Assembly: GCA_041483675.1 (NCBI GenBank)
Contig: JBGPGE010000006.1
Span: 8,978 to 72,977 of the forward strand
Length of the DNA stretch: 64,000 nt
DNA from: Candidatus Binatia bacterium
GTDB lineage: Bacteria > Desulfobacterota > Binatia > UBA9968
Direction of reading: 5' to 3'
The notes beneath the pieces are model-generated. The model was not told where the DNA came from. It worked only from the letters and a program-made list of their open reading frames with translations, and searched no databases. Of the stretch, positions 371 to 22,806 are shown piece after piece; position 1 is the stretch's first letter; the number at the start of each line of letters is the position of its first letter. Both the position numbers and the translations under genes were made by a program.

Positions 371-1426
371 TCACTCATCGCTCGGCTCGCCCTGCTCGAC
401 GTGCATGAAGCCAAGGTTTTCCATCAGCGGCCGGTTGTGATGGACCAGCAGCCGTGCCGGCTCCTCACCGGTGTTGAAATGCTGGTGCCACGCAAATACC
501 GGTATGCAGAGAACGTCGCCCCTCCCCCAGTCGTATCGCCGATCTTCGATCATGCTGTAGCCGCAACCGGACAAAATATAATTCACCTCTTCGTACATGT
601 GCCGGTGCGCGCCGGAGCGTTTTCCCGAAGAGATCTCGGCCAACAGCGTCCCCAGAACCCGCATGAGAAAGCCGGTTCGCGGGTCGATCACATAGCGAAT
701 GCGGCCCATGGCCGTCTTTTCGAAAGCGATCTCTGCTCCTTTTACCAACACCCGGCTTTGGCGGCGTCGTTTCTCCTCGCCCCCCGAAAAAGACAACTGT
801 TGCCGGTAGTGCGCATCGGTCTGGTTGAGAGGCTCCGTCGACGATTCCGCGGCCGCGCGGACGCGCGTGCTGTCGTCCGCGCCCGGAATCAGCGACTTCA
901 TCGCGCTTTCGCTCTTGTGGCCGAAGACCCAATAGTCGGGATACCGCTCGTCCTCGTAGACCGCCAATCCCAGAGACAGAGAGAGCGGGCCGGTCGTCGC
1001 CGCGAGATAAATGAAATCCTTGTCGCCTGTGTTCACGTGCCGGTGCCAGGAAAACATCGGCACGCTGATGAAATCGCCCGGCTCCCAGTCGTAGCGCGTG
1101 CCGTCGACGATGCTGTGGCCGCTGCCTTGATGCACGTGGAGCACCGCCTCGACCGTGTGGCGGTGGCCGAGCGTCTTCCAGCCCATGCCCTCTTCCTCGC
1201 CTGCCGGGATGCGGTTGATCCAGAACCGAAACGTCCGGTGGTTGAATCCCAGGCGGGGATCGACGAGGTAGAGATGCGAGTTGTTCGCGAACTGCGCGCG
1301 AATTTCCTCGGCCTTGATCTGGACCGGCGCCTGCTGCCGCCGCTTCGCCTCTTCCTTGGCGAAGCGAACCGACTCCATCATCATCCGGTCGTGCTCTTCG
1401 GGGCGGAGGATTGCCATGGCTTTCAA
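371..1426 (-). CDS. bicupin dioxygenase, gentisate 1,2-dioxygenase-like
   Basis: 351-aa ORF with two cupin barrels carrying His-rich motifs (HRH, WHRH, AWHQH). Its start overlaps the upstream UbiD stop by 4 nt (ATGA). Confidence 0.6.
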   Translation of the reverse strand: MKAMAILRPEEHDRMMMESVRFAKEEAKRRQQAPVQIKAEEIRAQFANNSHLYLVDPRLGFNHRTFRFWINRIPAGEEEGMGWKTLGHRHTVEAVLHVHQGSGHSIVDGTRYDWEPGDFISVPMFSWHRHVNTGDKDFIYLAATTGPLSLSLGLAVYEDERYPDYWVFGHKSESAMKSLIPGADDSTRVRAAAESSTEPLNQTDAHYRQQLSFSGGEEKRRRQSRVLVKGAEIAFEKTAMGRIRYVIDPRTGFLMRVLGTLLAEISSGKRSGAHRHMYEEVNYILSGCGYSMIEDRRYDWGRGDVLCIPVFAWHQHFNTGEEPARLLVHHNRPLMENLGFMHVEQGEPSDE

Positions 1427-2859
1427 TGAAGTCTCGACAGCAGGTCATGCCATTTTTTCGAGACCGCGCTCTTCTTCCCGGCGCTGAGCGCGTTCGTCGC
1501 TGGAAAATCCTTGATCCAGCGGTACGGCCGGCAGGCGTCGATGATCATCTTGGATGAGACGAAGTGACCCTGCTCGCGGTCCTCCGGCGCGACGCGCGGG
1601 TTGATGCCGCTGGTTGGAAAGCCCTTCAAGACTTCGCTTTGCTCCGCGGGATCGCAGCGCGTTGTGATCGCCCAGAAGACGTCGCGCAGATCCGACGGGT
1701 CGATGTCCTCATCGACGAGGATGACGAATCTTCCGAGATGCACCGTGGCGCGGACCCCGAGCGCGATCGCCGCCGCCTGGCGCGCGTGGCCTTCGTAGCG
1801 CTGCTTGAGCGAGATCACCGTCGCGAAGGGTCCGTGCAGCCAGACACCGCGAACGTCTTGAATGCCGGCGGATTCCAACGCGGACCATACGCCCGCCGCC
1901 GGCAGCGGAATGCCGAAGTGATCCATCCCCGGAACCGGCTTGAGCGGCGGATCGCCCTGGATGATCGGCTCGTCGCGGTGCATAAGCGACAAGACGCGCA
2001 CGACCGGCTCGTTTCTCGTCCCGGTCGCGTAGTAGCCGGTGCGCTCGCCGAACGGCCCTTCGGGACGCGCCTCTTTTTCGCCCGGAGGAATCTCTCCCTC
2101 GACGACAATCTCTGCGTGCGCGGGAATCGGGAGCCCGGTTTTTTCGCCCTTCAAGACTTCCACCGGCTCGCCCCGAAGCCAGCCGGCGACGCTCAACTCG
2201 CCGACGCCCCAGGGCTCGCGCTGCGCCGCGGCCAGATAAAGCGCGGGCTCCTGCCCGAACGAGATAGCCACCGGGCAGCTCTTTCCCCGCGCCCAGTATT
2301 TCTCGACGATCAGCCGGCCGTGCTGGATGTGGTTGATGAAAATGCCGAGGGTGTTTTTATCGTGGACCACCACGCGATAGACGCCCATATTCACCCAGCC
2401 GTCGTCGGGGTCGCGCGTGAGCACGCAGCAGCCAGTGCCGATGTAGTAGCCGCCGTCTTTCTCGTGCCACCTCGGCGCGGGGAATTTGAGCAGATCGACT
2501 TTACCTCCCGAAAAAGCATTTTCCCGCACCGGACCGTCTGCGACTTCTCGCGGCTCGATCTTCTTGAATGTCCTAAGCTTTTCTTTCCACTCCTTGACGA
2601 GATCGACGTTGCCGAGCGACGGATCGAGGCCCAAGCCGAGCGCCATTCGGCGCACGCCGCCCATCGTGCCGGCCGAAACGCGGTATCCCACGGGGTAGCC
2701 CTTGATCTTGTCGAACAAAACCATCGGGTGCTTGGCCGTGCTCGCGACGATTTCAGCCAGCGCGCCGATCTCCTCTTCGCGGTCCGCGCCGTCGATCTTG
2801 AGCAGGTCGCCGTGCTCTTCGACTTTGTGGAGATAGTCTCTCAGGCTTTGGAACGGCAT
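1423..2859 (-). CDS. UbiD-family (prFMN-dependent) aromatic acid decarboxylase
   Basis: 478 aa. N-terminus MPFQSLRDYL...LLKIDGADRE and overall length are typical of the UbiD / 3-octaprenyl-4-hydroxybenzoate carboxy-lyase family. Its start is overlapped by 19 nt by the upstream XDH-family gene. Confidence 0.75.
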   Translation of the reverse strand: MPFQSLRDYLHKVEEHGDLLKIDGADREEEIGALAEIVASTAKHPMVLFDKIKGYPVGYRVSAGTMGGVRRMALGLGLDPSLGNVDLVKEWKEKLRTFKKIEPREVADGPVRENAFSGGKVDLLKFPAPRWHEKDGGYYIGTGCCVLTRDPDDGWVNMGVYRVVVHDKNTLGIFINHIQHGRLIVEKYWARGKSCPVAISFGQEPALYLAAAQREPWGVGELSVAGWLRGEPVEVLKGEKTGLPIPAHAEIVVEGEIPPGEKEARPEGPFGERTGYYATGTRNEPVVRVLSLMHRDEPIIQGDPPLKPVPGMDHFGIPLPAAGVWSALESAGIQDVRGVWLHGPFATVISLKQRYEGHARQAAAIALGVRATVHLGRFVILVDEDIDPSDLRDVFWAITTRCDPAEQSEVLKGFPTSGINPRVAPEDREQGHFVSSKMIIDACRPYRWIKDFPATNALSAGKKSAVSKKWHDLLSRLH

Positions 2860-5096
2860 GCCAAACCCTCGAGGATTTTTTCCGCGGTGACCGGCAGCTC
2901 GGTGATCCGCACCCCGGTCGCGGCGTAGACCGCGTTCGCCACCGCCGGCGCGACGACGCTGACGCCCGCTTCGGCCACCGACTTCGCGCCGAACGGGCCG
3001 GGACCGACCTTCGCTTTAACCAGCGAAGTCGTGAGCGGGACGTTGTCGGCGATGTTCCGAAGCTTGTAGTCGCCAAGCGTCAGCGTGGTCACCCGCCCAT
3101 CTTCGACTTTCAACTCCTCGGTGAGCGCGTAGCCCAGCCCCTGGACGATGCCGCCGTCGATCTGTCCCTGGTGAATCAGCGGATTGATGATCGTGCCCAC
3201 GTCGTAGACGAAGTAGAGCTGTTGCAGCTCGACCGCGCCGGTCTCCCGGTCAACCTCCACGTCGACGACAATCGCCTGAAAAGAGTAGACGTGCGGCTTA
3301 TGCCCCTTGTACTTGCCGAATCCTTTGACCGGCGCTTCCGAAAGGCCCGCCAACTCTTTCAAGCTCAGCTTTTTTCTTTTTCCGTTATTTTTGAAGAGAG
3401 CGGCTCCATCCGCCCAGGAAATCTTTTCGACCGGCGCGCCCCATCGCGACGCGGCGAGAGATCGCAGATTGTCGATCAACGAGGCCGTCGCCCGCGCAAC
3501 CGCCTGTCCCTCGACGTGCGTCCCCCTGGCGCCCTTGATCCCCTGGTCGTACGGAGCGTCGGAGGTATCCCTGACGTCGATCGCAATCGAATCCGGATCG
3601 ATGCCGAGCAGCTCGGCCGCGACCTGGCGGTGCATCGTGTAGGCGCCGACGCCCTGATCGCCGACGCCGCTCAAGAGCCGGAGCGTTCCGTCGCGCTCGA
3701 GCAGCAATTCGAAGCTCGATTCGCCGTGGCCCACGTGGCGGTCGCCGAGCGCCACGCCGCGTCCGATTAATTTATTTCCGGCGGAAGCTTTGGCCGGCTT
3801 CTTTTTCCATCCGGAAATTTTCTCCACGCGATCGAGAACTTCGAGGCAGTGCGGATCTTCCAGCGGTTCTCCCGTTGAGCGCGTGTCGCCCTCTTTCAAC
3901 GCGTTCCGGCGGCGGAATTCGATCGGATCCATGCTGAGCTTTTCAGCCATCAGATCCATCTGGCTTTCGACGGCGAACAGGGTCTGCGTTTCCCCCGGCG
4001 CGCGGAAATAGCCGCACGGCACTTGGTTGGTGTAAACGCAATACCCTTCGAGACGCGTGTTGGGGACATTGTAAGAGCCCGCGACCATATACGCGCCGCT
4101 CATCGAGCCTTCCGGATTCGGCTTGAACGCGCCGTAGGCGCCGCCGTTGTAGAAGGTCTTCCCGTCCCACGCCCACAGCCGGCCGTCCCTCTTGACACCG
4201 ACGCGAAGCTGAACGACCGCGGAATGGCGCGGCGTCGTGGCGCCCAACTCCTCGCTGTAGCTTTTTACGAAGCGCACCGGCCGTCCGGTTTTTTTCGAGA
4301 GGTAGTAAGCGGCCGGATTCAAGAACAGAAAATCTTTCGCGCCGAACGAGCCGCCCATATTGCTCGGGTAGATCGTGATGTCCTCCGGCGCAAGCTCCAG
4401 ATACTCCGCCAGGACGCGGCGCAGCTTGAAGTAGGCCTGGTTCGCCACCCAGATCGCGACGCGACCCTGCCCGTCGACTTCCACCGTGCAGGCGTACGGC
4501 TCGATGTAGCCCTGGTGCACGAGTTGGGTGCGATAGGTTTTCTCGAAGACGTAATCGGATTCGGCGAAGCCTTTTTCGATCTCGCCCTTTCTGCCGCGCA
4601 CCAGCGTCTGGACGTTTTTCAGCTCGAGCGCCATGGTTTTCGGCCCCTTGTAACTCGGGTAGTCCGGATGGAGCAGCGGCGCTTCGGGCTTCATCGCCTC
4701 CAACGGATCGAAGACCGCCGGGAGATCCTCGTAGTCCACGTCGATCAGGTGCACCGCCTCCTCGGCCGTCTCGACATCGACGGCGGCGACGGCCGCGATC
4801 TCCTCGCCGACAAAGCGCACGCGGTCGCGCGCCATGACCGGCATGTCTCGAAGCGTCGCGCCGACGAGCGTCGTTTTCATGTCGGCGGCGGTGACGATCG
4901 CCTTCACGCCGGGGAGGCTCAGCGCCCGGGTCGTGTCTATGTTAAGGATGCGCGCGTGGGGCAGCGGGCTGCGCAGCACCTTACCCCACAGAGAGCCGGG
5001 CCTGAGCACGTCGGCCGCGTAGCTTAATTTGCCGCTCACCTTCGCCGCGCCCTCGACGCGTGGAAAAGATTTACCGATGACTTTGGATGCTTTCAA
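2841..5096 (-). CDS. xanthine dehydrogenase / aldehyde oxidase family molybdopterin-binding large subunit (no adjacent FeS or FAD subunits)
   Basis: 751 aa, beginning directly with the Mo-binding a/b-hammerhead region (MKASKVIGKSFPRVEGAAKVSGKLSYAADV). It is a full-length CoxL/XdhB-like fold and a paralog of 30546..32798. Confidence 0.75.
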   Translation of the reverse strand: MKASKVIGKSFPRVEGAAKVSGKLSYAADVLRPGSLWGKVLRSPLPHARILNIDTTRALSLPGVKAIVTAADMKTTLVGATLRDMPVMARDRVRFVGEEIAAVAAVDVETAEEAVHLIDVDYEDLPAVFDPLEAMKPEAPLLHPDYPSYKGPKTMALELKNVQTLVRGRKGEIEKGFAESDYVFEKTYRTQLVHQGYIEPYACTVEVDGQGRVAIWVANQAYFKLRRVLAEYLELAPEDITIYPSNMGGSFGAKDFLFLNPAAYYLSKKTGRPVRFVKSYSEELGATTPRHSAVVQLRVGVKRDGRLWAWDGKTFYNGGAYGAFKPNPEGSMSGAYMVAGSYNVPNTRLEGYCVYTNQVPCGYFRAPGETQTLFAVESQMDLMAEKLSMDPIEFRRRNALKEGDTRSTGEPLEDPHCLEVLDRVEKISGWKKKPAKASAGNKLIGRGVALGDRHVGHGESSFELLLERDGTLRLLSGVGDQGVGAYTMHRQVAAELLGIDPDSIAIDVRDTSDAPYDQGIKGARGTHVEGQAVARATASLIDNLRSLAASRWGAPVEKISWADGAALFKNNGKRKKLSLKELAGLSEAPVKGFGKYKGHKPHVYSFQAIVVDVEVDRETGAVELQQLYFVYDVGTIINPLIHQGQIDGGIVQGLGYALTEELKVEDGRVTTLTLGDYKLRNIADNVPLTTSLVKAKVGPGPFGAKSVAEAGVSVVAPAVANAVYAATGVRITELPVTAEKILEGLACRSKA

Positions 5097-5156
5097 CGTT
5101 CACATCTCCGGTTAGCTCGTCTTCTTCGCGCCACCCTCGGTCTCGCCGTGGCAGCC

Positions 5157-5239
5157 GCTGCCTGGTCGGAGAGCCCGCGCATCCGATACTGCCGGTTGGA
5201 ATAAGCAGCAATCCATTGCGCGGGCTCGGAGAGCAGGCG
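5157..5239 (+). repeat. 83-bp palindromic intergenic element, family A copy 1 (ggtcg-agagcccgcgc ... gcgcgggctcggagagc-ggcggc)
   Basis: A 10-bp perfect inverted repeat gagcccgcgc/gcgcgggctc with extended imperfect arms. Near-identical copies occur at 9903..9985 and 18823..18905, all in the same orientation. Confidence 0.7.
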
Positions 5240-5279
5240 GCGGCTGCCGCTGCTGCTTTTTACTTTTACCTTTTTACTT

Positions 5280-6659
5280 TCATTCCAATCCCAACTCCCC
5301 CCACCGCCGCAGCACTTTTTGCGTCAGCTCGCGGCTCACCTCGTTCACTTCGGGAAATTCCACGCCTTTGAATTTCGAGGTCGCGTCGATGGCGATGCGT
5401 GACGTGAAGCCGTGCTTCACCAACGGCTGGTGGCCGCCGTGCTGGCGCGGCGGCGTGATCCAAACGTCGCGGTGCGGCTCGCTCCTCGAATAGATGCGCC
5501 ACCATATATTGTTCCAGTCGTCGAGGTCGGCGTCGGCGTCGACCACGATGATCCAGTTCGGCCCCATCGCGTTTACGCCCCAGACCGTCTCGACGATCTG
5601 CATCACCTGTCCCGGCTCCGTGATGTCGGCCGCCACGACGCAAATCTCCCGCCCGCAGCCCGGATCCGGGAAGCGCACGTCGACGACACCGGGCGTGCCG
5701 AGGCTTTTCAACTTGCCCCAGAGAACCGCCGAGCGCGTGATCCGCTTGCCGCCGTCTTCCATGTAATTGCAGATAAGTCCCTGGTGAATCGGATTTTTCC
5801 TGTGTGTGACGCATTTGACTTTGAAGACGAGCCCCTCTTTTTCGTCGCCGTAGAAGCCGTGCGACTCGCCGTGCGGGCCTTCCGTCACCCGCGTTTTCGG
5901 CAGGACTTCGCCTTCGAGAATAATTTCCGAGTGAGCGGGAACGAGCATGTCGATGGTCTCGCACTTCGTCACCTCCACGCCCTTTCCCCGGAGCCCGCCG
6001 ACAAAGGCAAGCTCGGCGTGGCGCGCCAGCCCGGAGCTGATCGGGTTCATCGACGCGATCGAGAGCAGCGGCTCCATGCCGATCGCCACCGCCATCGGCA
6101 TCGGCTCGTTGCGCGCTTCGTACTGGCGGTAGTGCGCCAACCCATCGCGGTGCATCGACATGTAAAGCGTGTTTTTGTCTTTGATGACCAGCCGATACAT
6201 GCCCATGTTCTGGTCGCCGGTGGCGCGGTCCCTGGTAATGCAGCCGTGAAACGTGCCGAGATAGGGTCCGACGTCCCTTTCATGCCAGACCGGCGTGGGA
6301 AACTTGTAGAGATCGACCTGTCCGTCTTTTTGAATTTCCTCCTTACAGGGGCCGCCTTTCACTTCGACCGGCTGCGTCGGGTTTTTGAAGCCGGAGAGAA
6401 ATTTCTCGAACATCGTCTTCATGTCGCCCTCGATGCCGAAGGCGATGGCCATTTTTTTATCCGTCGAGAGCACGTTCGTGACGAGCGGTGTCTTGTGGCC
6501 CTTGATGTTTTCGAACATGAGCGCCGGGCCTTTTTTGAGCAGCGAATGATACGCGATCGCGCCCAGCTCGTGGACCGGATCGACCTCCGCCTTGACACGC
6601 TTTAACTCGCCCACGTTTTCCAGCGCATTCAAAAACTCGCGCAACGAATCGAATGGCAT
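5280..6659 (-). CDS. UbiD-family decarboxylase (second paralog)
   Basis: ORF 5280..6722. The start is chosen at the internal ATG (MPFDSLREFLNALE...), which has an AAGGAG Shine-Dalgarno 7 nt upstream and aligns with the N-terminus of the paralog at 1423..2859. Confidence 0.7.
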   Translation of the reverse strand: MPFDSLREFLNALENVGELKRVKAEVDPVHELGAIAYHSLLKKGPALMFENIKGHKTPLVTNVLSTDKKMAIAFGIEGDMKTMFEKFLSGFKNPTQPVEVKGGPCKEEIQKDGQVDLYKFPTPVWHERDVGPYLGTFHGCITRDRATGDQNMGMYRLVIKDKNTLYMSMHRDGLAHYRQYEARNEPMPMAVAIGMEPLLSIASMNPISSGLARHAELAFVGGLRGKGVEVTKCETIDMLVPAHSEIILEGEVLPKTRVTEGPHGESHGFYGDEKEGLVFKVKCVTHRKNPIHQGLICNYMEDGGKRITRSAVLWGKLKSLGTPGVVDVRFPDPGCGREICVVAADITEPGQVMQIVETVWGVNAMGPNWIIVVDADADLDDWNNIWWRIYSRSEPHRDVWITPPRQHGGHQPLVKHGFTSRIAIDATSKFKGVEFPEVNEVSRELTQKVLRRWGELGLE

Positions 6660-6716
6660 GCTTGCTCCTTTCAGGAGACTGAAGGGGAAACGTTTCTTGG
6701 AGCGGTTTTCCCCTTC

Positions 6717-6792
6717 TGTCATTCCCGCGCAGGCGGGAATCCAGTCTTTTTTCTAATCCTGAACGCCTGGATGCCCGCTTTCGCGGGCATGA
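6717..6792. repeat. two REP-like hairpin units of the attcccgc/gcgggaat family (gtcattcccgcgcaggcgggaatccag; ctggatgcccgctttcgcgggcatgac)
   Basis: Inverted-repeat units seen by eye. The same family recurs at 32949..32980, 35750..35776, 40668..40726 and 59273..59335. Confidence 0.6.
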
Positions 6793-6815
6793 CGGATATT
6801 CGGTCATCCGCTCAT

Positions 6816-7823
6816 TTATCTATACAACTGCTCCGCAAATCCCGACTTCATGACTTCCTTCGCCGCCCTGTCGTCGATAAAGCTCGCCGCGTTGGCGCCC
6901 GCCGCCTTGGCATTGGTCAACGCGACCTCTTCCAACACCAGCTTTAGATCGTCGGGAAAGATCTCCGGCACTCTGGGGAAAAGCTTGATGTGGAGATCGT
7001 AAGCGGGCTTCAGAACGTCCGGCGCGTCCACGCGCGTGTACTTCTTGAAGATCTCCATGCCTTCTTTGGGCCGGGTTTTCAAATAATGGATCGCCTCGAC
7101 GAGCGTCTTCATAAAACGCACCATCGTCTCGTGCTTTTCGGAAAGAAAACTCCGCTTCGCCAGGAAAGCGGCCAGCGCGTATCTTGCGTCCATGTCGGAC
7201 AGGTCGGCCAACTCGCGCAGCCCCAGCTTTTTCGCCTGCAGGTTTTGGGGAACTCCGATCACTCCCGACTCTATCGCGCCCGTGACGACGGCCACCGCGA
7301 TGTCCGGCATCGCCCCGATCTGCACGAACGAGACATCCTTTGCCGGGTCCAAGCCCGCGCGCTTCAGATAGTAGCGGGCGGCAAAATCGAGCGTGCCGCC
7401 GAACCGCGTCACGCCCATCTTCTTGCCGCGCAGTTGAGATACGTTCGTTATCGACGGCTGGACCATGACCGAGAACAGAAATGTCTGAATGACGTTGCCG
7501 AACAGCGCCAGGTCCGAATAGCCCTGCAACTGGGCGGCGATTCCACTCGAGCCGCCGCCGGCCAGGACATCGAGATCGCCCGACACCATGGCCGCAATTC
7601 CCCGTGTCGAGGAGCCAACGGCTATAAGCTCGACCGGCAGCCCATGTTTCTTGAAAATCCCGGCGTCTTGCGCGGCCCACAGCGGCAGAAACGCGCCGGC
7701 CGGCGCGGGGTAGGCGACGCGCAGCGGGCGGTCCGCCGCATGTAGCCCCGCGGCGGCGAGCAGCGCCCCGACGATTAGCGGAAAAATGATTTTGATTTTC
7801 GGTTGTTTCTGCATGATTGCCAT
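6816..7823 (-). CDS. ABC transporter substrate-binding protein, NMT1/THI5 (SsuA/TauA-like) family
   Basis: 335 aa with an N-terminal signal peptide (IIFPLIVGALLAAAGLHA). Periplasmic-binding fold, paralogous to the flanking SBPs. Confidence 0.6.
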   Translation of the reverse strand: MAIMQKQPKIKIIFPLIVGALLAAAGLHAADRPLRVAYPAPAGAFLPLWAAQDAGIFKKHGLPVELIAVGSSTRGIAAMVSGDLDVLAGGGSSGIAAQLQGYSDLALFGNVIQTFLFSVMVQPSITNVSQLRGKKMGVTRFGGTLDFAARYYLKRAGLDPAKDVSFVQIGAMPDIAVAVVTGAIESGVIGVPQNLQAKKLGLRELADLSDMDARYALAAFLAKRSFLSEKHETMVRFMKTLVEAIHYLKTRPKEGMEIFKKYTRVDAPDVLKPAYDLHIKLFPRVPEIFPDDLKLVLEEVALTNAKAAGANAASFIDDRAAKEVMKSGFAEQLYR

Positions 7824-7825
7824 CC

Positions 7826-8794
7826 TTATTTGAGTTCGATCAAAGCTTCCGTGACGAACCTCGGCTCGACGAATCGTTTCAAATCCACCGCCCGCCCGCG
7901 CATCTCGGGAATGCTGTCCCAGGCGTTCTGCAGCCCCTCGATATCGGGCACCGGCTCGGAGCGCAAAAATTTATTCGTATCGACGTAGATGTTCTCGATG
8001 TCGGCCTCGGAGACTTTGTAGTATTTCCTGAGATACGGCTTCACCAGGTCCGGGCGCGCCTTCCAGCTCCGTATGCCGTCGAGGAATCCCAGCACGACCT
8101 GCTTCAATACCGCGGGCCGCTCTTTGACCAATGAATCGTGCGCGACCATGATCTGGCTCGCGAACTTGGTCTTGATGGTCGAGAGATCGAAAATCACCTG
8201 GAGGCCCGCGTTGCGGGCGAACGGCACGAAAGCCGGCGTGACGATCGCGCCGTCGACGCCACCGCTCGCCAGCGCCGCCGAGCGCGCGGCGGAGTTGCCG
8301 ATCTGCAAGATCTGCACGTCTTTGTCCGGATCCATGCCCCATTGACGGATGACGAAGCGGGTCTGGATATCGGAGAAGGCGCCGTAGCGGCTGACCGCGA
8401 TCTTCTTGCCTTTCATGTCCTTGGGGCCGGCGATTCCCGGCCGGGCGACGAACAGGTGCTGGAACTGGTCGATATTGACCATGATGATCTTCATCGGCGC
8501 GCCGGCGGCCATCGCCCTGAGCGCGTCGGTCGCCGTCGTCGTGGCTGTCGCGGCGCTGCCCGACGCCATGGTCTGCGACGTGATGACACCGCTGGTGACG
8601 TAGAGCATCGTCATGTCGAGGCCGTGTTTCTTAAAGAACCCCGCCTCGTAGGCGAACTTGAGCGCGTCGCTCTGCGAACCCGAGCCGGTATAGACGAAAT
8701 TCAGCGGAGTCAATTGGGCGCGGGCCGCCGGCGTCCAGGCAAGAAAAACGGAAGCGATCCAAAGCGTCTGCCAAAAACATTTGTTTTGCCTCAC
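7826..8794 (-). CDS. ABC transporter substrate-binding protein, NMT1/THI5 (SsuA/TauA-like) family
   Basis: 322 aa with a signal peptide. Paralog of 6816..7823, with 2-nt spacing to the downstream gene and a 4-nt overlap with the upstream dioxygenase. Confidence 0.6.
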   Translation of the reverse strand: MRQNKCFWQTLWIASVFLAWTPAARAQLTPLNFVYTGSGSQSDALKFAYEAGFFKKHGLDMTMLYVTSGVITSQTMASGSAATATTTATDALRAMAAGAPMKIIMVNIDQFQHLFVARPGIAGPKDMKGKKIAVSRYGAFSDIQTRFVIRQWGMDPDKDVQILQIGNSAARSAALASGGVDGAIVTPAFVPFARNAGLQVIFDLSTIKTKFASQIMVAHDSLVKERPAVLKQVVLGFLDGIRSWKARPDLVKPYLRKYYKVSEADIENIYVDTNKFLRSEPVPDIEGLQNAWDSIPEMRGRAVDLKRFVEPRFVTEALIELK

Positions 8795-9870
8795 TTCGCC
8801 TCCCGATTGTGTGCGTCAAAAGATTCGTCGCGGTGAATGCCGAGGGCTTTGAGCAGCGGCTCGTCCGTATAAGAAATCAAAATCGCGTCCTCGCCCGCGG
8901 AACCATTCGCGTGCTCGTGCCGGTGCCAGCCGGGAACGACGAAGATATCGCGCTCCGACCAATCGAATCTTCGGCCTTCGATGACGGAATAACCCGAACC
9001 GCGAAAAACATGGTAGATCGCGGCCGAGCTATGGCGATGGCTCTTGGTGCGCGCCCCGGCGCGCAGCTTCTGCGCGTAGCAGCCGATGGTCGGCATGACG
9101 GGCCCGCCGGTGTGCGGGTTGAAATACTCAAGCCTGAGATCGTCGTACGGGCTCGCGTCCGCGTCTTTCATGTCGTCCAGCGCCTGCACCATTTTTTTCC
9201 AGGAGTATTTGGTCAGCGGCGAATAACTCTTTTGCCAGTTGAAGCCGGCCGGCCGCATGCCGGGCGCGGAGAAACGGCTCATCGACGCCTCGTCAACCTG
9301 CGTGACGGGCTGCGTCCTTTTTCCCGGATAGAGCTCGAAGAAAACAGTGTCCATCGCCTGGATGAGCGGCACGTCGAGGCCGTCGAGCCAGATCATCGGA
9401 CCTTTCCCGTCGTTTTTGTGGTCGTGGTAGCTCCAGGCGGGCGTGAGAATGAGATCGCCCGGCTCCATCCAAAGGCGCTCGCCGTCCGTGCAGGTGTAGG
9501 CGCCCTCGCCCTCGATGATAATTCTTAGCGCCGCGGGCGTATGGTGGTGCGCCAGCGCGGTCTCCCCCGGCATGATCATTTGAACGGCCGCGACCAGATT
9601 AGGCGTGGTCGCGAAGCGGCCGCTGTTTTCGAGGCCCGGGTTCATCAAGCCGAGCACCCGCCGCTCGACGTTCTCCGTGCTCACGACCTCCGAGGCGCGC
9701 ATCATCTGTGCCCGCACCTCGGCCCATTTCCAGAGATAGGGCACGGCAAGCTTGTGCGGCGCGTGGGCCTCCTGCAACCAGAGAGGCCGCAAATGCAGGC
9801 GCTTGACCTCTTCGTAAAAGGTGGTTGGGTCAACAGGGACATCTGCAACGGAAATAGCTTTACTCATCAA
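8791..9870 (-). CDS. gentisate 1,2-dioxygenase-like bicupin dioxygenase
   Basis: 359 aa with two cupin domains (HHH / HDH / HRH motifs) and a GDO-like N-terminal region (FYEEVKRLHLRPLWL). Confidence 0.65.
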   Translation of the reverse strand: MMSKAISVADVPVDPTTFYEEVKRLHLRPLWLQEAHAPHKLAVPYLWKWAEVRAQMMRASEVVSTENVERRVLGLMNPGLENSGRFATTPNLVAAVQMIMPGETALAHHHTPAALRIIIEGEGAYTCTDGERLWMEPGDLILTPAWSYHDHKNDGKGPMIWLDGLDVPLIQAMDTVFFELYPGKRTQPVTQVDEASMSRFSAPGMRPAGFNWQKSYSPLTKYSWKKMVQALDDMKDADASPYDDLRLEYFNPHTGGPVMPTIGCYAQKLRAGARTKSHRHSSAAIYHVFRGSGYSVIEGRRFDWSERDIFVVPGWHRHEHANGSAGEDAILISYTDEPLLKALGIHRDESFDAHNREAK

Positions 9871-9902
9871 ACTACCTCTTCCTCGCAGGTGAGAGCCGCC
9901 GC

Positions 9903-9985
9903 CCGGTCGTAGAGCCCGCGCGTCCGATACCGCCGGTGGGAAAAAGCACCGACCCGTCGCGCGGGCTCGGAGAGCGGGTGGCGGC
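9903..9985 (+). repeat. 83-bp palindromic intergenic element, family A copy 2
   Basis: cggtcgtagagcccgcgcgtccgataccgccggtgggaaaaagcaccgacccgtcgcgcgggctcggagagcgggtggcggc. Same orientation as the copies at 5157 and 18823. Confidence 0.7.
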
Positions 9986-9993
9986 TTGACCCG

Positions 9994-11169
9994 TCACTTC
10001 GAGGCCCCTTGAAGCCCTACGGACGCCGAAGTCCCGGCGGAAAACTCGATTGACTCCTTGCTCAGGTTGGGCAGCACTTCCTTGGCCATCAGCTCCAGAC
10101 TCTTCTTCACCTGGCTAAGCCTCAGCCTGCCGAAAACCGGCCGCATCATGATCTTGTTCGTGCCGAGCGTCCTGCACTGATGAAGGATCTGTTCGGTGAC
10201 ATAGTCGGGATCGCCGACGATGGTGATCCCTTCGCGCTGCAACAACTCGAACGACCAGTTCTTGATTTCCATCACACCGACGTGCTCGCCTTTCTTGTAG
10301 TCCGTAGCGCGCTCGGAAAAATACTTATCGGCCACGTTGCGGCTGTATTTGGCCGGCGAGCCGCCGAACTCCTCGGCCGGGCCGACCAAGAGGTCTTTTT
10401 CCGCCTCCTCGCGCGCCTTGGCGTTGGTCTCCCCGACGTAGATGTCGCGCGAGACGATGCAGTGATCCGGGCCCGGCTGCCAGCCACAGTTATCCTTCGC
10501 GTACTTGCGATAGTATTCGAAGCTCTCGCGGATCTGATCCGTCGGCGACCACGAAGCCGCGAGATTGACGCGGTTTTTGGCCGCCCACTCGATGCTCTCG
10601 GCGCTGATCGACGGAATCCAGGTTTCGGGAATCGGTTGCTGCAGAGGGCGCGGCAGAAAAGCGACGTAATCGAGGTTCCAGTACTTGCCGTGGTGTTCGA
10701 ACGGCTCCTCGGCCTGCCAGCCTTTAGATATAATGTTCCAACCTTCTTCGAAGCGCTCGCGCGATTCGGCGGAAGGAATCTGAAAAGCCCAGAAATCCCC
10801 GCCGCGCGTCATACCGACAACCAGCCTGCCGTTCGTCAGGTTGTCCAACAAGGCAAGCTCTTCGCCCAGCCGCACCGGGTGATGCAGCGGCAGGCAGTTG
10901 CCCATGAGGCCGATCTTGATTTTTTTCGTCAGGACGGCGGCCATGGCGACGAAGAGATTCGGCGAAGGCGAAAGACCGTTGGCCGCGCGGCTGTGATGCT
11001 CCGGAAAAAAAATCCCGTCGAAGCCGTAGTCCTCGACGCCGCGCAGGAACTCGACGACCTCGTCGTAAATCTCCTTGCCCAAAAGCCGGTCGTAATCCTT
11101 TCCCGCGAGCAGGTAAGAACCGGCGATGCGCTTGGGATAACCCACGCGCATGAAAAGCCAAACCTTCAT
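9994..11169 (-). CDS. LLM-class (luciferase-like) flavin-dependent monooxygenase/oxidoreductase
   Basis: 391 aa. The FFPEHH motif and TIM-barrel LLM architecture are present. Confidence 0.65.
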   Translation of the reverse strand: MKVWLFMRVGYPKRIAGSYLLAGKDYDRLLGKEIYDEVVEFLRGVEDYGFDGIFFPEHHSRAANGLSPSPNLFVAMAAVLTKKIKIGLMGNCLPLHHPVRLGEELALLDNLTNGRLVVGMTRGGDFWAFQIPSAESRERFEEGWNIISKGWQAEEPFEHHGKYWNLDYVAFLPRPLQQPIPETWIPSISAESIEWAAKNRVNLAASWSPTDQIRESFEYYRKYAKDNCGWQPGPDHCIVSRDIYVGETNAKAREEAEKDLLVGPAEEFGGSPAKYSRNVADKYFSERATDYKKGEHVGVMEIKNWSFELLQREGITIVGDPDYVTEQILHQCRTLGTNKIMMRPVFGRLRLSQVKKSLELMAKEVLPNLSKESIEFSAGTSASVGLQGASK

Positions 11170-11200
11170 AGATTCTCCCTCCCCTTAATCCGTCACGTTG

Positions 11201-12202
11201 CTAGATTGGAAATATTTCCCGCGCCGTCACCCGGCGCGGCAGCAAACCGTCCGCTTCGAGAATATCGATGCATTTATCAACCGTTCTACTGTTGAGGTCG
11301 TTAAGGCCGCAGGCGTTGGGATCGACGTTTAAAAGTTCTTGTTCGCGCTCGTAGAGCTTGCGTTCATCGGCATTCATATAGCGCGGCGCTTCTTTTGCGG
11401 AGCGGTCGAACGCCTGAACCAGCGCGGCACCCATGCCTCGGCTGTTCTCGCCGAGGCTTTTTCGGACGGCGAGGCAGTGGTACGTGGGGTAAATTTTCGT
11501 TTTTTTAAACCACTGAACCTGCGCCACCGGCTCGCCGATGGGAAAACAGAGATTGGAATTGGCGGCCACCATCTGCTCCAGATCTCCATAGGGATCCGGC
11601 GTGCGGCTCGCGCCGCTCTCGACCAGCCAGTTAAACCAATGGCCGCCCGCTCCGCCGGGATAGATGACGGCGTCCAACTCGCCCGCGCCGAGCCGCTGGA
11701 TCATTTCGGATGCTTTGATCCCGCCGCGCGCGTGAAGATGCCGCCACTCCTGCCCCATCGCTCCGTCGCTCATCAGCGGCTCGGCGGCGAGCCAGCGGGC
11801 GTCGCGGCATCCGATGCCATATTCGTCTTCCAGAAGACCGCGCAGATAGACGCTGGTCGCGCCCAGCACGCGCCCCATACCGATGACGCGGCCTGTTAGG
11901 TCCTTGGGCGCGAGCGGCCCGCGGCGCATCACGAATTTTCTGTGCACCATTCCGCGAGTGACGAAAATCGGCAGAGCAACAAGCTCTTTCTCGACGCCCC
12001 GCGCGATGCGGACGATGTAATCGGTCAGGACCTGCTCGGCGCCGGCATATTTCTCTTCGACTTCGCCGCGCAGCCTTCTCGATGTCCGCTGATCGAAAGG
12101 CGCGGCTTCGAAGGCGACGTCGAACCCGTCTACTTTGACGGTTCCGTCGAACAACGCTTTAGTCCAAATGCAGTCGGGAATCTGGATCGAGAGCGGGGCC
12201 AT
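11201..12202 (-). CDS. SBP-fold cytoplasmic protein, putative 4,5-dihydroxyphthalate decarboxylase (PhtD)-like family
   Basis: 333 aa with no signal peptide. Paralog of 12616..13598 (shared N-terminal motif I-I-D-x-W-T-x-A-L-x-D-G-T-V-x-V-D-x-F). The family assignment rests on recalled similarity only. Confidence 0.35.
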   Translation of the reverse strand: MAPLSIQIPDCIWTKALFDGTVKVDGFDVAFEAAPFDQRTSRRLRGEVEEKYAGAEQVLTDYIVRIARGVEKELVALPIFVTRGMVHRKFVMRRGPLAPKDLTGRVIGMGRVLGATSVYLRGLLEDEYGIGCRDARWLAAEPLMSDGAMGQEWRHLHARGGIKASEMIQRLGAGELDAVIYPGGAGGHWFNWLVESGASRTPDPYGDLEQMVAANSNLCFPIGEPVAQVQWFKKTKIYPTYHCLAVRKSLGENSRGMGAALVQAFDRSAKEAPRYMNADERKLYEREQELLNVDPNACGLNDLNSRTVDKCIDILEADGLLPRRVTAREIFPI

Positions 12203-12619
12203 CTATTTGCTCCCCTCTTTGGCCTGGTAAATTTGCAAGACATTCCCCTCCAGGTCGCCGATAAACGCAATCCAGCCGTGCGAAACTTCCAGCACGTCAT
12301 TCACGATGGGCACGCCGCGCTTGCGGTAAGTTTCGACCAACTGATGAATCCCCGCCGCAACCTGAAAGCTCGGGACAAAGCCGACTCGTCCACGCGGCGA
12401 GGCCGACGCGCGGCCGTCCCGGTGCAGCACCAGGGGCGGGCCGGAGGTGGCGAACTCAAAGTTGGTCCCTTCGACTGCGCTCAGGACAGGCCCCGCGACT
12501 CCGCCGAGCGGCTTAAAGCCGAGCACGTCGCGGTAATAGGCGACGGCTTTGTCGAGATTCTCCACGTAGACGAGCAGGCGCCGGGCGTCGAACAGGAGCG
12601 GAGTCGTCTCTGCCGTCAT
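12203..12619 (-). CDS. VOC (glyoxalase / bleomycin-resistance / extradiol dioxygenase) family protein
   Basis: 138 aa and VOC-like. The stop abuts the start of 11201..12202, and the start overlaps the stop of 12616..13598 by 4 nt. Confidence 0.55.
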   Translation of the reverse strand: MTAETTPLLFDARRLLVYVENLDKAVAYYRDVLGFKPLGGVAGPVLSAVEGTNFEFATSGPPLVLHRDGRASASPRGRVGFVPSFQVAAGIHQLVETYRKRGVPIVNDVLEVSHGWIAFIGDLEGNVLQIYQAKEGSK

Positions 12620-13598
12620 AATTGCCCCGCGAACGGAAAAAGTTCCGCGATCGAAAAGCGCCGGCCGAGCAGACCGTCGGCCTGAAGATAGTCCATCAAC
12701 TTTTCAATCGTGCGCCGCTGGACGGCGCCCAGCTCGTAACGGTAAGGATCGAATCCCAACAGAGTTCTTTCCCGATCGATCAATTCCTGCTCCTTCTCAT
12801 CCAACCGCAACTCGCTCGCCATCCAGGCGCGCGTGAAAGCCGCGACGAGCGCTTCCGCAAGCCCCGGATGTTCTTCCAGGCAATCGCGCCGCACTTGCAG
12901 CGCATGGACCACCGGATAAATTCCCGCTCTTCTGAACCATGCGGCGATCTCACTCGCGTCGCCCAGCGGCTCGTAGAGATCGGGAAAGCGCTTCAACGTA
13001 CCGCCGATCATCGCATCGCCGCCGAACAGGGAATAAAAGCCATGGCCGCCGGGATGAATAAGCGCCGCGAACTCGCCGTGGCTTACCATTTCCGCGGCGG
13101 CAACCACCGCTTCGAAGCCCTCGGGCTTGCTCAGCCTTCCCTTGAGCCATCGCCATGCCGCGTCTTCTTCCGCGCCGTGGATCGTGTGCCAATCGATCGC
13201 TTCACGTGGAATACCGAATTCCTCGGCCAACAGACCGCGCACATAAACGCCCCCGGGCGTGAGAACCCGCGGCAACAGCACCTTCTTGCCGCTTAACTCT
13301 TTGACCGATATTCCGCCGCGCCGCATGAGCAACGTGCGCTGGCGAAAGCCGCCCAGCATGAAGATCGGCAAGGCGATCTTGGAAACGCCTGTCGCTTGAT
13401 CCTTTTCCAGCAGGTAATCGGTTAACGTCCCGTCCGAGCCGTCCCACTTTCCGTCGCGCACGCCGTGGAGCCGGTCCGGCAGGCTCACCTTGGCGTGAAA
13501 CTCGACGGCGAAGTTGTCGACGCGCACGGTTCCGTCTACCAGGGCGCGCGTCCAGAGATTGTCGCCGATCGCGATTCGAACGGAGCTTCCCGCTTGGC
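12616..13598 (-). CDS. SBP-fold cytoplasmic protein, putative PhtD-like decarboxylase family (paralog)
   Basis: ORF 12616..13734. The start is trimmed to the GTG at 13596-13598 (…SQAGSSVRIAIGDNLWTRALVDGTV…), which abuts the GntR stop at 13599 and matches the paralog's length. Confidence 0.35.
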
Positions 13599-14309
13599 TC
13601 ACGTTCTTTCCCCGCTCCGTTCCTGATCTTTGAGTCCCGCGTAAGGCTCGATGAAGTACCGGCGCAAAAGCTCGCGCCCGATTTCCATCACCTTGAATCT
13701 TAATTCCTCCGCCTGGCGGTCGTCTTTTTTGCAAAACGCCTCGTAGATGCCCTCGTAGCAGCGGGTGATCTCCTCCATATATCCGGGCACCGAGACGTGG
13801 AACACGCGGTAGCGGGCGCTGGGATAGGCCATCACCTCCAGAAGATGCGCGAGCCTGGGCGAGAAACTTCTCTCGCCCACAAACCGCTCCAGCTCGGCTC
13901 GCGTGTCGAGAAATCCGTTGCGGTCGTTCTTATCCGCCGCTTGTCGTAGCCTACGGACCAGCGCCTGCATGCTGCTCAAAGTCTCGCTCTTCATCCGCTG
14001 GCAGGCGAGCCGCACGGCCAACCCGATCAGATGGCCATGAATCAGATAGAGCTCGTCGGCCTCTTCCGGGGTCACGTCGGCGACGGCCACGCCGCGGCTC
14101 CCGCTCTGTTTGACCAGTCCGTCGCGCTCCAGGATGCGCAGCGCCTCGCGTACCGGAGAGCGGCTCATCCCGAGCTCGCGGCAAACCGCCAGCTCGCTGA
14201 TCCTTTGATTGGGCCGCAGCCTGTCAGACAGGATTTCGCGCGTCAGATGCTGCACGACCTTTTCTACCAGGCTGAGTTTTTGGTTGTTTGCGGGTCCGTT
14301 TTTTTTCAT
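13599..14309 (-). CDS. GntR-family transcriptional regulator (FadR/FCD subfamily)
   Basis: 236 aa with an N-terminal wHTH (ISELAVCRELGMSRSPVREALRILERDGLV) and a C-terminal FCD-like helical domain. Confidence 0.75.
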   Translation of the reverse strand: MKKNGPANNQKLSLVEKVVQHLTREILSDRLRPNQRISELAVCRELGMSRSPVREALRILERDGLVKQSGSRGVAVADVTPEEADELYLIHGHLIGLAVRLACQRMKSETLSSMQALVRRLRQAADKNDRNGFLDTRAELERFVGERSFSPRLAHLLEVMAYPSARYRVFHVSVPGYMEEITRCYEGIYEAFCKKDDRQAEELRFKVMEIGRELLRRYFIEPYAGLKDQERSGERT

Positions 14310-14325
14310 TTGCCTTTGCCCGATA

Positions 14326-14337
14326 ATTGTCTACAAT
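14326..14337. promoter_or_regulatory. candidate GntR-type operator palindrome ATTGTctACAAT in the divergent promoter region
   Basis: A perfect 5-2-5 inverted repeat matching the general GntR/FadR operator pattern (t.GT..AC.a). It lies 17 nt upstream of the gntR start and 65 nt upstream of the ABC operon. Confidence 0.4.
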
Positions 14338-14401
14338 GCCGCCGACAACCTAGTATACACTTACCGCGCTTGTCAAATAATTTGTGGGCTGAGGGTGGCC
14401 G

Positions 14402-15499
14402 ATGATCAAAGTTGCAGGGTTAAAGAAAACGTTTTCGGTCGATCGCGGCCAGGTAAGGGCCGTCGACCATATCAGCTTCGAGGTCGCCAAAGGCGCCTTT
14501 TTCACGCTGTTGGGACCGAGCGGCTGCGGCAAGAGCACCACGCTCCGCTGCGTCGCGGGGTTGGAGAAGCCCGAAGAGGGCGATATTTGGATCGACGACC
14601 AGCCGGTTTTTTCCTCGCGGGACGGCCTCTTCGTCCCGCCGAACAAGAGAAACATCGCCATGGTTTATCAGTCCTACGCGATCTGGCCGCACATGAACGT
14701 CTTCGATAACGTCGCCTTTCCACTGCAGATCCGAAGAAAGCGCTCCGCCCGCGAGATCCGGGAAAAGGTGGGAGAGGTCTTAAGTCTGGTCGGGCTCGAC
14801 GGCTTGCAGAATCGCCCCGCCACCCTGCTGAGCGGCGGGCAGCAACAACGCGTTGCATTGGCCAGGGCTCTCGTGCAGGAGCCCGGGGCCCTGTTGATGG
14901 ACGAGCCGCTCTCCAACCTCGACGCCAAGCTGCGCGAGCAGATGCGGATCGAGCTGGGCGAGCTGCTGCGCCGGTTGAACGTCACGACGCTCTACGTGAC
15001 GCACGACCAGCTCGAGGCCTTTTCCATGTCGCATACGATCGCGGTCATGCACGACGGCAACATTATCCAGACCGGCGCGCCCAGGGAGATTTACAATCAT
15101 CCCAAGACGAGCTTTGTGGCGAACTTCGTCGGCCTGGCCAATTTCCTGGAAGGAAAAGTCGTGGACGGCGCCGGTGGCGACGGTCTTGGACGGGTGGAGA
15201 CTCCTGTCGGCATCCTGTCCTCTCGCCTCCCGGGAGAGGCGAAGCCCGGCGACTCGGTCACCATTTCGGTTCGACCGGAAAACATCGAGGTATGTAGCCA
15301 ACATCAACGCGCGGAGGATAACGTCATCTCCGGTAAGGTCCAGAGCCTGATCTTCTTGGGCGAGCTGTGCGACGGCAAAGTTGCGGTGCAGAATCACGTC
15401 CTGAGAATCAGGATCCACCCCTCAACCGATTTGAACGAGGGTCAGCGGATAACGCTGCGGCTGCCGCCCAGGGCGTGCTCGGTCCTCGCGTTTCACTAG
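14402..15499 (+). CDS. ABC transporter ATP-binding protein with C-terminal TOBE domain (PotA/FbpC/MalK-like)
   Basis: Walker A GPSGCGKST, the LSGGQQQR signature, Walker B LLMDEP, and a C-terminal TOBE-like region. Confidence 0.8.
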   Translation: MIKVAGLKKTFSVDRGQVRAVDHISFEVAKGAFFTLLGPSGCGKSTTLRCVAGLEKPEEGDIWIDDQPVFSSRDGLFVPPNKRNIAMVYQSYAIWPHMNVFDNVAFPLQIRRKRSAREIREKVGEVLSLVGLDGLQNRPATLLSGGQQQRVALARALVQEPGALLMDEPLSNLDAKLREQMRIELGELLRRLNVTTLYVTHDQLEAFSMSHTIAVMHDGNIIQTGAPREIYNHPKTSFVANFVGLANFLEGKVVDGAGGDGLGRVETPVGILSSRLPGEAKPGDSVTISVRPENIEVCSQHQRAEDNVISGKVQSLIFLGELCDGKVAVQNHVLRIRIHPSTDLNEGQRITLRLPPRACSVLAFH

Positions 15500-15568
15500 C
15501 AACCGCAGGAAATGGCCCGTTTGACAACGGATTCGCCTGAAGCCTATATCTGGCCGCGAGGTGAGACC

Positions 15569-20708: not shown

Positions 20709-20803
20709 TCGTCGACTGTCACGCGCACGCCATTCCGCCGGAAGCGGTCGACCTGCTCGATCAAACCGGCGTCAGCGGCCTTTCCGCTCCCACCGCTTCA
20801 TGA
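20706..20803 (+). pseudogene. amidohydrolase-family gene remnant (N-terminal 32 codons only)
   Basis: MIVDCHAHAIPPEAVDLLDQTGVS... is a typical N-terminus of a metal-dependent TIM-barrel amidohydrolase (DxHxH). It is followed by a stop after 32 codons and then by a convergent aldolase gene. Confidence 0.45.
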
Positions 20804-21497: not shown

Positions 21498-21516
21498 GGT
21501 CGGCTAATCCTATGGG

Positions 21517-22800: not shown

Positions 22801-22806
22801 AAAGTT

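Follow-up and report, generated by a model that had tools for sequence, protein, structure and literature searches.

The 64,000-nucleotide (nt) stretch of Candidatus Binatia DNA analysed here (the window) carries, on its minus strand, a gene for a molybdopterin large subunit of the xanthine-oxidase family (XDH-L) between two genes for UbiD-family decarboxylases (UbiD1 and UbiD2). With moderate confidence, this trio is interpreted as the core of a GntR/FCD-regulated, O2-dependent operon of the Binatia, which would take carboxylated aromatic compounds, most likely N-heteroaromatic ones, to ring cleavage. The original prediction had described two UbiD paralogs (478 and 459 amino acids) flanking a 751-amino-acid xanthine dehydrogenase (XDH)/CoxL-type subunit. 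The three genes were indeed intact, co-oriented and tightly linked, and Pfam and NCBIfam agreed with their assignment. What had been missed was that the trio is only the core of an operon of about 14 kb with further decarboxylases and O2-dependent enzymes, and that the lone large subunit is found clade-wide in the Binatia. The genes of the trio, in the order of transcription, are:

5280..6659, minus strand: UbiD1, UbiD-family decarboxylase dependent on prenylated flavin mononucleotide (prFMN), 459 amino acids
2841..5096, minus strand: XDH-L, xanthine-oxidase-family molybdopterin large subunit, 751 amino acids
1423..2859, minus strand: UbiD2, PhdA-like UbiD-family decarboxylase, 478 amino acids

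The longest open reading frame (ORF) of UbiD1 is 6722..5280 (480 amino acids). The ATG at 6659 has the Shine-Dalgarno sequence AAGGAG 6 nt on its 5' side, and the resulting 459 amino acids match the length of the orthologs. XDH-L starts with TTG, the sole in-frame option, with GGAG 9 nt 5' of it, and UbiD2 with an ATG preceded by GAGGG. The start of UbiD2 sits 19 nt within the 3' end of XDH-L, and a comparable overlap is present in a related locus (L013, 76% identical). Of the two gene overlaps claimed originally this one is real, but the other, 4 nt between UbiD2 and the next gene (bicupin B), is doubtful. It requires that bicupin B start at TTG 1426 (351 amino acids) and not at ATG 1417 (348 amino acids, 5-nt gap after UbiD2), whereas ATG 1417 was chosen by the JGI gene caller on an identical contig (metagenome 3300053057) and alignments of the orthologs begin at residues 2-4. 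Judged by these data ATG 1417 is at least as likely to be the start; the packing of the two genes is tight whichever start applies. Scans for terminators and promoters within the trio gave nothing above background.

The trio is the core of a set of co-oriented genes headed by a GntR/FCD regulator and extending over about 14 kb (window positions 14309..371, minus strand). The other genes of this operon, followed by those of the divergent unit, are:

13599..14309, minus strand: GntR/FCD transcription regulator, first gene (Pfam GntR 52.9 bits, FCD 53.8 bits)
12616..13602, minus strand: 4,5-dihydroxyphthalate-decarboxylase-like protein 1, 328 amino acids from GTG 13602 (PDB 9JP7, E 2e-22)
12203..12619, minus strand: glyoxalase/VOC-fold protein (Pfam Glyoxalase, E 2.4e-5), synteny conserved
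11201..12202, minus strand: 4,5-dihydroxyphthalate-decarboxylase-like protein 2, 333 amino acids (PDB 9JP7, E 4.9e-14), synteny conserved
9994..11169, minus strand: luciferase-like (flavin-dependent) monooxygenase (Pfam Bac_luciferase 153 bits), with 72-94% identical orthologs
8791..9870, minus strand: bicupin A, gentisate / 5-aminosalicylate 1,2-dioxygenase-like (TIGR02272 322.7 bits, cut-off 442)
7826-8794 and 6816-7823, minus strand: two NMT1/THI5-type solute-binding proteins (Pfam NMT1, NMT1_2)
371..1426, minus strand: bicupin B, distant gentisate-dioxygenase-like (Cupin_2 in two stretches, 94 bits; PDB 3BU7, E 7e-26)
14402-15499, plus strand: ATP-binding cassette (ABC) transporter ATPase of the divergent unit (ABC_tran, TOBE_2)
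15512-16099 (alpha) and 16075-16677 (beta), plus strand: two-subunit thiamine pyrophosphate (TPP)-dependent decarboxylase, ComD/ComE-like, with a 25-nt alpha/beta overlap

The stop codon of the GntR gene overlaps the GTG of the next gene by 4 nt, and GntR also heads the cluster in loci L001 and L002. Gene picks by longest ORF or by GC content at third codon positions (GC3) mislead at 13599-14405: a 124-amino-acid plus-strand ORF (14031-14405) is antisense to the true GntR gene (14309..13599), and the 372-amino-acid ORF following GntR is over-extended by 44 codons, its true start being GTG 13602. The protein read from this GTG has orthologs of 328 amino acids and is conserved in related loci. 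Neither it nor the 333-amino-acid protein had a Pfam or NCBIfam match. Bicupin A reached 290 bits with NF049978 (cut-off 650), and its translation contains HxH...H metal motifs; bicupin B reached 62 bits with TIGR02272 (cut-off 442) and has HRH...WH(R/Q)H motifs in both halves. Both bicupins belong to the superfamily, and their substrate is probably a different one. The TPP-dependent pair also scored below threshold (TIGR03845 73 bits, cut-off 148; TIGR03846 94 bits, cut-off 221). Further transporter genes are likewise divergent from GntR. Outside the operon, at 20772-21497 (minus strand), a class II aldolase/adducin-family protein weakly matched PhtC (3,4-dihydroxyphthalate decarboxylase), with 64 bits against a cut-off of 200, and is possibly a further decarboxylase in the neighbourhood of the operon.

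The operon recurs in 15 distinct related loci, mostly from Binatia metagenome-assembled genomes (MAGs), with XDH-L identities of 68-91%; the closest named homologs are Candidatus Binatia MAGs. This recurrence indicates that the arrangement of the trio is more than chance. The gene order is GntR/FCD, the 328-amino-acid protein, the glyoxalase-fold protein, the 333-amino-acid protein, the luciferase-like monooxygenase and bicupin A, then zero to four NMT1-type binding proteins, UbiD1, XDH-L, variable inserts, UbiD2 and bicupin B. It was kept whole or mostly in L001, L002, L004, L006-L009, L013 and L018, and a form devoid of UbiD genes was found in L010, L011 and L016. What is inserted between XDH-L and UbiD2 varies: a binding protein, TenA or a cupin, or another XDH-L copy of 53-61% identity. 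The NMT1-type binding proteins occur in the 74-91% loci; L001, L009 and L018, in which bicupin B directly follows UbiD2, do not have them. A homologue of the TPP-dependent decarboxylase lies beside GntR in L002 and within the cluster in L007. Similar TPP subunit genes adjoin coxMSL operons (a canonical one in L012, incomplete ones in L030 and L031).

XDH-L consists of the Pfam domains Ald_Xan_dh_C (a/b hammerhead), MoCoBD_1 and MoCoBD_2. As the original prediction had it, the protein starts with the molybdenum (Mo) domain; no Fer2/ferredoxin-type domain is fused to it. Residue conservation was followed in an alignment with 118 database homologs (58-100% identity), Escherichia coli XdhA and PaoC, and a separate pairwise HMMER alignment with 4-hydroxybenzoyl-CoA reductase (4-HBCR) gave the same motifs. 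Among the homologs 156 of the 751 positions are invariant, including the motif GGSFGAK, R365 (in RAPGE) and E199. The Glu709 of the window protein aligns with the catalytic Glu of XdhA, PaoC and 4-HBCR; it is shared by 105 of the 118 homologs, and 12 database homologs (P0071, P0074 and others) have Gln there. The cofactor residues, for which a check had been suggested originally, are thus present, and XDH-L is most likely a catalytically competent Mo-hydroxylase subunit.

The XDH-L clade, as delimited here, comprises 26 genes (42-100% identity), including a second copy in the window as well as tandem and dispersed paralogs in Binatia MAGs:

30546-32798, minus strand: second lone XDH-family large subunit, 750 amino acids, 42% identical to XDH-L

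This copy has retained GGDFGGK as well as the Arg of the active site and the catalytic Glu. It has no UbiD gene nearby and is flanked by NAD kinase/RecN on one side and by an ABC permease on the other. L004, L006, L007, L008, L010, L011 and L016 each contain, in tandem or at a distance of a few genes, a further XDH-L paralog of 53-61% identity, in all cases with the catalytic Glu. None of the 26 clade genes, in more than 15 loci and the 64-kb window, has adjacent genes of its own for the iron-sulfur (FeS) and flavin adenine dinucleotide (FAD) subunits (S and M). The lone large subunit is a trait of the whole Binatia clade and not of a single locus. A UbiD gene lies within 10 kb of 17 of the 26, and paralogous UbiD2-like/XDH-L pairs with gaps of 10-250 nt are present in L007 (21-nt gap), L014, L015 and L019.

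The original prediction also stated that no CoxS, CoxM or UbiX gene occurs in the 64 kb. A Pfam scan of about 60 window ORFs revealed no Fer2/Fer2_2, FAD_binding_5/CO_deh_flav_C or UbiX-type flavoprotein domain. Partner genes hidden in other frames or short ORFs were sought by tblastn at E <= 10. E. coli XdhB, XdhC, PaoA, PaoB, PaoD and UbiX, taken from the annotated K-12 genome, gave only noise in the six frames of the window (E >= 0.29), and Binatia CoxS and CoxM (from L012 and L028) and a CoxS hidden Markov model built from 120 sequences gave nothing below E = 1. The CoxS and CoxM queries detected both genes in L012, L021 and L023, and CoxS only in L020, so the CoxS/CoxM negatives are meaningful. 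UbiX was found neither in the 64-kb window nor in 23 related loci, a search that had no positive-control locus. In summary, neither an FeS nor an FAD domain is fused to XDH-L, and genes for such subunits were found neither in the six frames of the window nor at any orthologous locus.

Canonical coxM-coxS-coxL operons are present elsewhere in the Binatia. One of them, in L012, lies 3.3 kb from a lone paralog; L012 and L009, the latter with an ortholog, come from one MAG. Others were found in Binatia contigs L028 and L032, and L030 and L031 resemble such an operon but end just after CoxS. (The best 120 matches in the L012 CoxS search were dominated by near-identical CoxS proteins.) For this reason supply of the FeS and FAD partners in trans appears to be the likeliest solution for XDH-L, and we infer that they are shared. 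UbiX and a flavin reductase for the luciferase-like monooxygenase are also lacking locally, which makes reliance on partners encoded in trans normal for this operon.

Alternatively, the XDH-L clade could function without FeS/FAD subunits, either by direct re-oxidation of the Mo centre by O2 or a small acceptor, or by docking on another protein such as UbiD. In the docked version the two proteins would form a channelled module, which decarboxylates and then hydroxylates to convert a ring carboxylate into a hydroxyl. The lack of S/M genes beside any of the clade members fits this scheme, as do the recurrent adjacency of UbiD and XDH-L genes, seen also in the paralogous pairs, and the finding that the closest homologs with an adjacent CoxS (L020, L021, L023) are just 33-34% identical to XDH-L. 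The clade also has specific invariant residues (H194-Q195, H642-Q643 and M488-H489), which differ from those of E. coli XdhA and PaoC. However, we know of no xanthine-oxidase-family enzyme that functions without FeS centres, three loci retain XDH-L without any UbiD, and both the coxMSL operons of the Binatia, including that in L012, and the equally missing UbiX and flavin reductase genes speak for partners in trans. We regard this alternative as unlikely. A literature search found no paper linking Binatia with xanthine dehydrogenase and nothing relevant on lone coxL genes.

UbiD1 and UbiD2 each contain the Pfam domains UbiD_N, UbiD and UbiD_C, and both exceed the cut-off of TIGR00148 (245 bits) with 295 and 271 bits, respectively. 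The roles of the motif residues are those known from Fdc1/UbiD structures. They were also drawn from the paper on PhdA (PMC10850782). Both proteins were aligned with E. coli UbiD and PhdA. UbiD1 carries QNMGMYR, HR, AELAF and EGPHGESHGFY at the corresponding places of E. coli UbiD, and UbiD2 has VNMGVYR, QH, GELSV and EGPFGERTGYY; the equivalence of UbiD2 and PhdA holds at the level of motifs, as the numbering in the PhdA paper and the offsets of the PDB chain disagreed. The Asn, His and Glu ligands of the metal and the prFMN phosphate, the catalytic Arg and the Glu...Glu/Asp motif are retained in both proteins, so that the prFMN/Mn residues named in the original prediction are in place.

The same prediction held that the two UbiD proteins form a heteromeric (de)carboxylase of the phenylphosphate carboxylase (Ppc) alpha/beta type, which works together with the Mo hydroxylase. 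This part was not supported. Both paralogs are co-retained in most loci, the 19-nt overlap couples translation of UbiD2 to that of XDH-L, and both paralogs matched the subunits of phenylphosphate carboxylase, yet these scores are far under the cut-offs: UbiD2 reached 264 bits with PpcB and UbiD1 185 (cut-off 469), and with PpcA the values were 181 and 175 bits (cut-off 565). Similarly, VdcC gave 276 and 238 bits (cut-off 650). UbiD1 and UbiD2 are 35% identical and fall into different clades, and their nearest solved relatives differ. UbiD1 is closest to E. coli UbiD (198 bits) and HmfF (187 bits), whereas the best PDB match of UbiD2 is PhdA (7PDA; 414 bits, with 45% of 465 aligned residues identical; runner-up 177 bits). 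The Pfam scan of window ORFs of at least about 100 amino acids showed no genes for Ppc gamma/delta, small UbiD-like or haloacid dehalogenase (HAD)-type proteins, and no Vdc B/D subunit genes were found in the window. The two UbiD genes are never adjacent. The exact order UbiD1 - XDH-L - UbiD2 recurs in L001, L009, L013 and L018, but in L002, L004, L006 and L008 varying genes that take up 2.6-5 kb lie between XDH-L and UbiD2, and L010, L011 and L016 have kept the operon with two XDH-L genes and no UbiD gene at all. PhdA itself, a phenazine-1-carboxylate decarboxylase of Mycolicibacterium fortuitum that also converts a dimethylquinoxaline carboxylate, was described as hexameric, with no mention of a second subunit type (PMC10850782). 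On the basis of this divergence in identity, relatives, scores and gene position, UbiD1 and UbiD2 look like separate enzymes that catalyze separate steps without forming an obligate complex, and a heteromeric pair seems improbable.

The best NCBIfam and PDB matches of XDH-L are to the alpha subunit of 4-HBCR (HcrA, TIGR03194, 483 bits; 1RM6_A, 316 bits). Together with the weak PpcA/PpcB matches of the UbiD proteins, this could indicate an anaerobic route of the phenol / 4-hydroxybenzoate type, in which a UbiD-type carboxylase acts with a 4-HBCR-like dehydroxylase. The HcrA score, however, is half of the cut-off (995 bits), and the window yielded no HcrB (FAD/[4Fe-4S]) or HcrC ([2Fe-2S]), no CoA ligase, no phenylphosphate synthase and no Ppc gamma/delta genes. 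Because the operon is rich in O2-dependent enzymes, namely the luciferase-like monooxygenase and, with their His motifs intact, two bicupins of the dioxygenase type, such a route is disfavoured and must be considered very improbable. Equally hard to credit is that XDH-L is a degenerate, non-catalytic remnant and the UbiD proteins alone are relevant: local partner subunits are lacking, but the domain architecture is full-length, the invariant positions and the catalytic Glu are preserved, the GC3 of about 0.80 is like that of the neighbouring genes, and the gene has been duplicated and retained across the Binatia.

That a Mo hydroxylase works with UbiD on an aromatic or heteroaromatic carboxylic acid, as predicted originally, gained support from the surrounding genes and from the PhdA-like character of UbiD2. 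Enzymes of this Mo hydroxylase family typically hydroxylate the carbon beside a ring nitrogen. A UbiD resembling PhdA, a Mo hydroxylase and a TPP-dependent decarboxylase of two subunits lead us to infer the substrate class, carboxylated N-heteroaromatics. Two pathways elucidated recently, those for lumazine (PMC12391406) and lumichrome (PMC12746152), follow the same logic. We propose the following order of steps: uptake, successive decarboxylations, Mo-dependent hydroxylation, flavin-dependent hydroxylation and ring cleavage. The substrate would be imported by the NMT1-type binding proteins and the ABC transporter. UbiD1 and UbiD2, as separate homo-oligomeric prFMN decarboxylases, would remove ring carboxylates from different intermediates, and the two dihydroxyphthalate-decarboxylase-like proteins and the TPP-dependent enzyme would decarboxylate alongside them. 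XDH-L would introduce a water-derived hydroxyl at an electron-poor carbon of the ring, typically one adjacent to N, so that XDH-L and a decarboxylase would together bring about a net exchange of -COOH for -OH. An additional hydroxyl could come from the luciferase-like monooxygenase, and the two bicupin dioxygenases would open the ring by gentisate-type cleavage. Electrons from XDH-L would pass to [2Fe-2S] and FAD subunits encoded elsewhere, probably shared among many lone paralogs; prFMN made by a UbiX and the reduced flavin for the monooxygenase would likewise be provided from elsewhere.

Several points weigh against this interpretation. The assignment to N-heterocycles goes back to one relative of 45% identity and to family habits. 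The operon lacks recognisable downstream hydrolases and isomerases that would complete a known pathway, and UbiX was located nowhere among the genome fragments covered. No FeS/FAD pair without an L subunit of its own was found in the contexts inspected (L028, L030, L031, L032). The complete absence of adjacent S/M genes from the clade is unusual for the family, and could reflect a different electron route.

Binatia are abundant, uncultured bacteria of soils and sediments. Their operon combines five or six putative decarboxylases of three unrelated cofactor classes (prFMN, TPP and the cofactor-free periplasmic-binding-protein fold) with a Mo hydroxylase and dioxygenases. It possibly represents an undescribed route for mineralising carboxylated (hetero)aromatics, for example phenazine, quinoxaline, pteridine or pyridine acids, and its enzymes are candidate biocatalysts for decarboxylation and hydroxylation. 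Of greatest interest is that FeS/FAD genes are missing next to the Mo subunit throughout the clade and that linkage to UbiD recurs. The lone large subunits of the clade pose the question whether they share remote FeS/FAD partners or work without them. If the partners are merely encoded elsewhere, the cluster is an ordinary though uncharacterised catabolic cluster.

The 183-nt spacer between UbiD1 and XDH-L contains the following structure:

5145..5253, minus strand: long imperfect hairpin with 37-nt arms, 81% complementary

As RNA it folds with -71.9 kcal/mol (z = -5.8), and there is no U-tail on the coding strand. The hairpin is common to the window and L007 (89% identical) only; other orthologous spacers do not have it. 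Rfam has no family for it, the sole Rfam match in the window being a tRNA elsewhere. A riboswitch or other known RNA in the spacer was rejected on these grounds. The hairpin is a lineage-specific insertion and probably has no part in the mechanism; it could be a small repeat, an insertion element or a structure that stabilises the mRNA. Between the binding-protein gene and UbiD1 sit two further hairpins, GC-rich and with stems of 8 bp, at 6721-6740 (ATTCCCGC...GCGGGAAT) and 6771-6790 (ATGCCCGC...GCGGGCAT). They resemble repetitive extragenic palindromic (REP) elements.

Further features were observed elsewhere in the window. A low-GC island at 21500-26100 (GC 0.49-0.54, compared with about 0.61 for the window) lies near a tRNA-Ala(GGC) gene (27676-27751, minus strand). 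It encodes a PIN_10 and a DUF433/HTH_66 protein, a HerA-like ATPase at 22807-24264 (PADLOC HerA 123 bits) and, at 25260-26006, a PDC-S05-like protein, has other ORFs that belong to no family, and is probably a defence or mobile island beside the tRNA gene. Two tandem paralogous proteins (787 and 784 amino acids) with tetratricopeptide repeats (TPR) and a caspase-like CHAT domain are encoded at 47892-52610 (minus strand), adjoined by a PIN-domain gene (47486-47857). In the region 36943-43017 a cyclic-nucleotide-binding domain is fused to a Na+/sulfate-type symporter (889 amino acids), and a CHASE2-adenylate/guanylate cyclase (735 amino acids) is encoded about 1.2 kb, one gene, away. This could be a transporter gated by a cyclic nucleotide and paired with its own cyclase.

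Compared with known systems, the cluster is an uncharacterised lineage-specific version of a known type of catabolic cluster. Identity with the 5-hydroxymethylfurfural (HMF) pathway, phenylphosphate carboxylase, 4-HBCR or VdcBCD was rejected on account of missing subunits or sub-threshold scores. HcrA of the HcrABC enzyme of Thauera aromatica (1RM6) is the closest solved relative of XDH-L, and PpcABCD of the same organism employs two UbiD-like subunits, but all scores fall well short of the cut-offs, HcrB/C, Ppc gamma/delta and CoA ligase were not found, and the setting here is O2-dependent. In the HMF/furoate pathway of Cupriavidus basilensis HMF14 the furoyl-CoA dehydrogenase HmfABC occurs with HmfF (structures 6H6V/6H6X) and HmfG. 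An XDH-family enzyme and a UbiD decarboxylase are found together there as in the Binatia operon. HmfF, however, is no nearer to UbiD1 (187 bits) than E. coli UbiD is, and the window yielded neither subunits of the HmfB/C type nor a CoA ligase, a hydratase or UbiX (HmfG). The nearest solved relatives of four accessory operon proteins are 9JP7 and gentisate 1,2-dioxygenase (3BU7, 2D40); these matches are distant (E 1e-14 to 1e-26) or below cut-off, and the substrates are probably different.

The closest counterpart of UbiD2 is PhdA (7PDA), with which it aligns end to end and has in common the motifs N...R, His, Glu and EGPFGExTGY. The substrates of PhdA are N-heteroaromatic carboxylates, and PhdB is its UbiX partner (PMC10850782). 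In the Binatia operon there is no adjacent UbiX/PhdB gene, and UbiD2 is embedded among a Mo subunit and bicupins; an identity of 45% leaves its substrate unfixed. Cluster I for lumazine/pterin degradation in Cupriavidus sp. LA-1 contains a xanthine-oxidase-family Mo dehydrogenase and a UbiX/UbiD prFMN decarboxylase (PMC12391406), and has in common with the Binatia operon that a Mo enzyme and a UbiD decarboxylase stand within one catabolic cluster. LA-1, however, has three dehydrogenase subunits, UbiX and an amidohydrolase-type isomerase, whereas only the large subunit was found in the Binatia operon, which has bicupins, a luciferase-like monooxygenase and dihydroxyphthalate-decarboxylase-like proteins instead. 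Streptomyces clusters of the lumazine type with the molybdopterin (MPT)-binding subunit only were noted by the same authors (PMC12391406). In the lumichrome (riboflavin) operon of Nocardioides simplex LumK/LumL, a two-subunit quinoxaline decarboxylase dependent on TPP, is followed by the xanthine-oxidase-like LumJ (PMC12746152). LumJ unites FeS, FAD and Mo domains in one polypeptide of 140 kDa, the ring is opened by Rieske and extradiol dioxygenases, and UbiD is not mentioned (PMC12746152). The TPP-dependent pair at 15512-16677 is reminiscent of LumK/LumL by its two-subunit type. Common to both operons are the logic of decarboxylation followed by Mo-dependent hydroxylation and the presence, in the Binatia beside the operon, of this rare two-subunit type of TPP-dependent decarboxylase.

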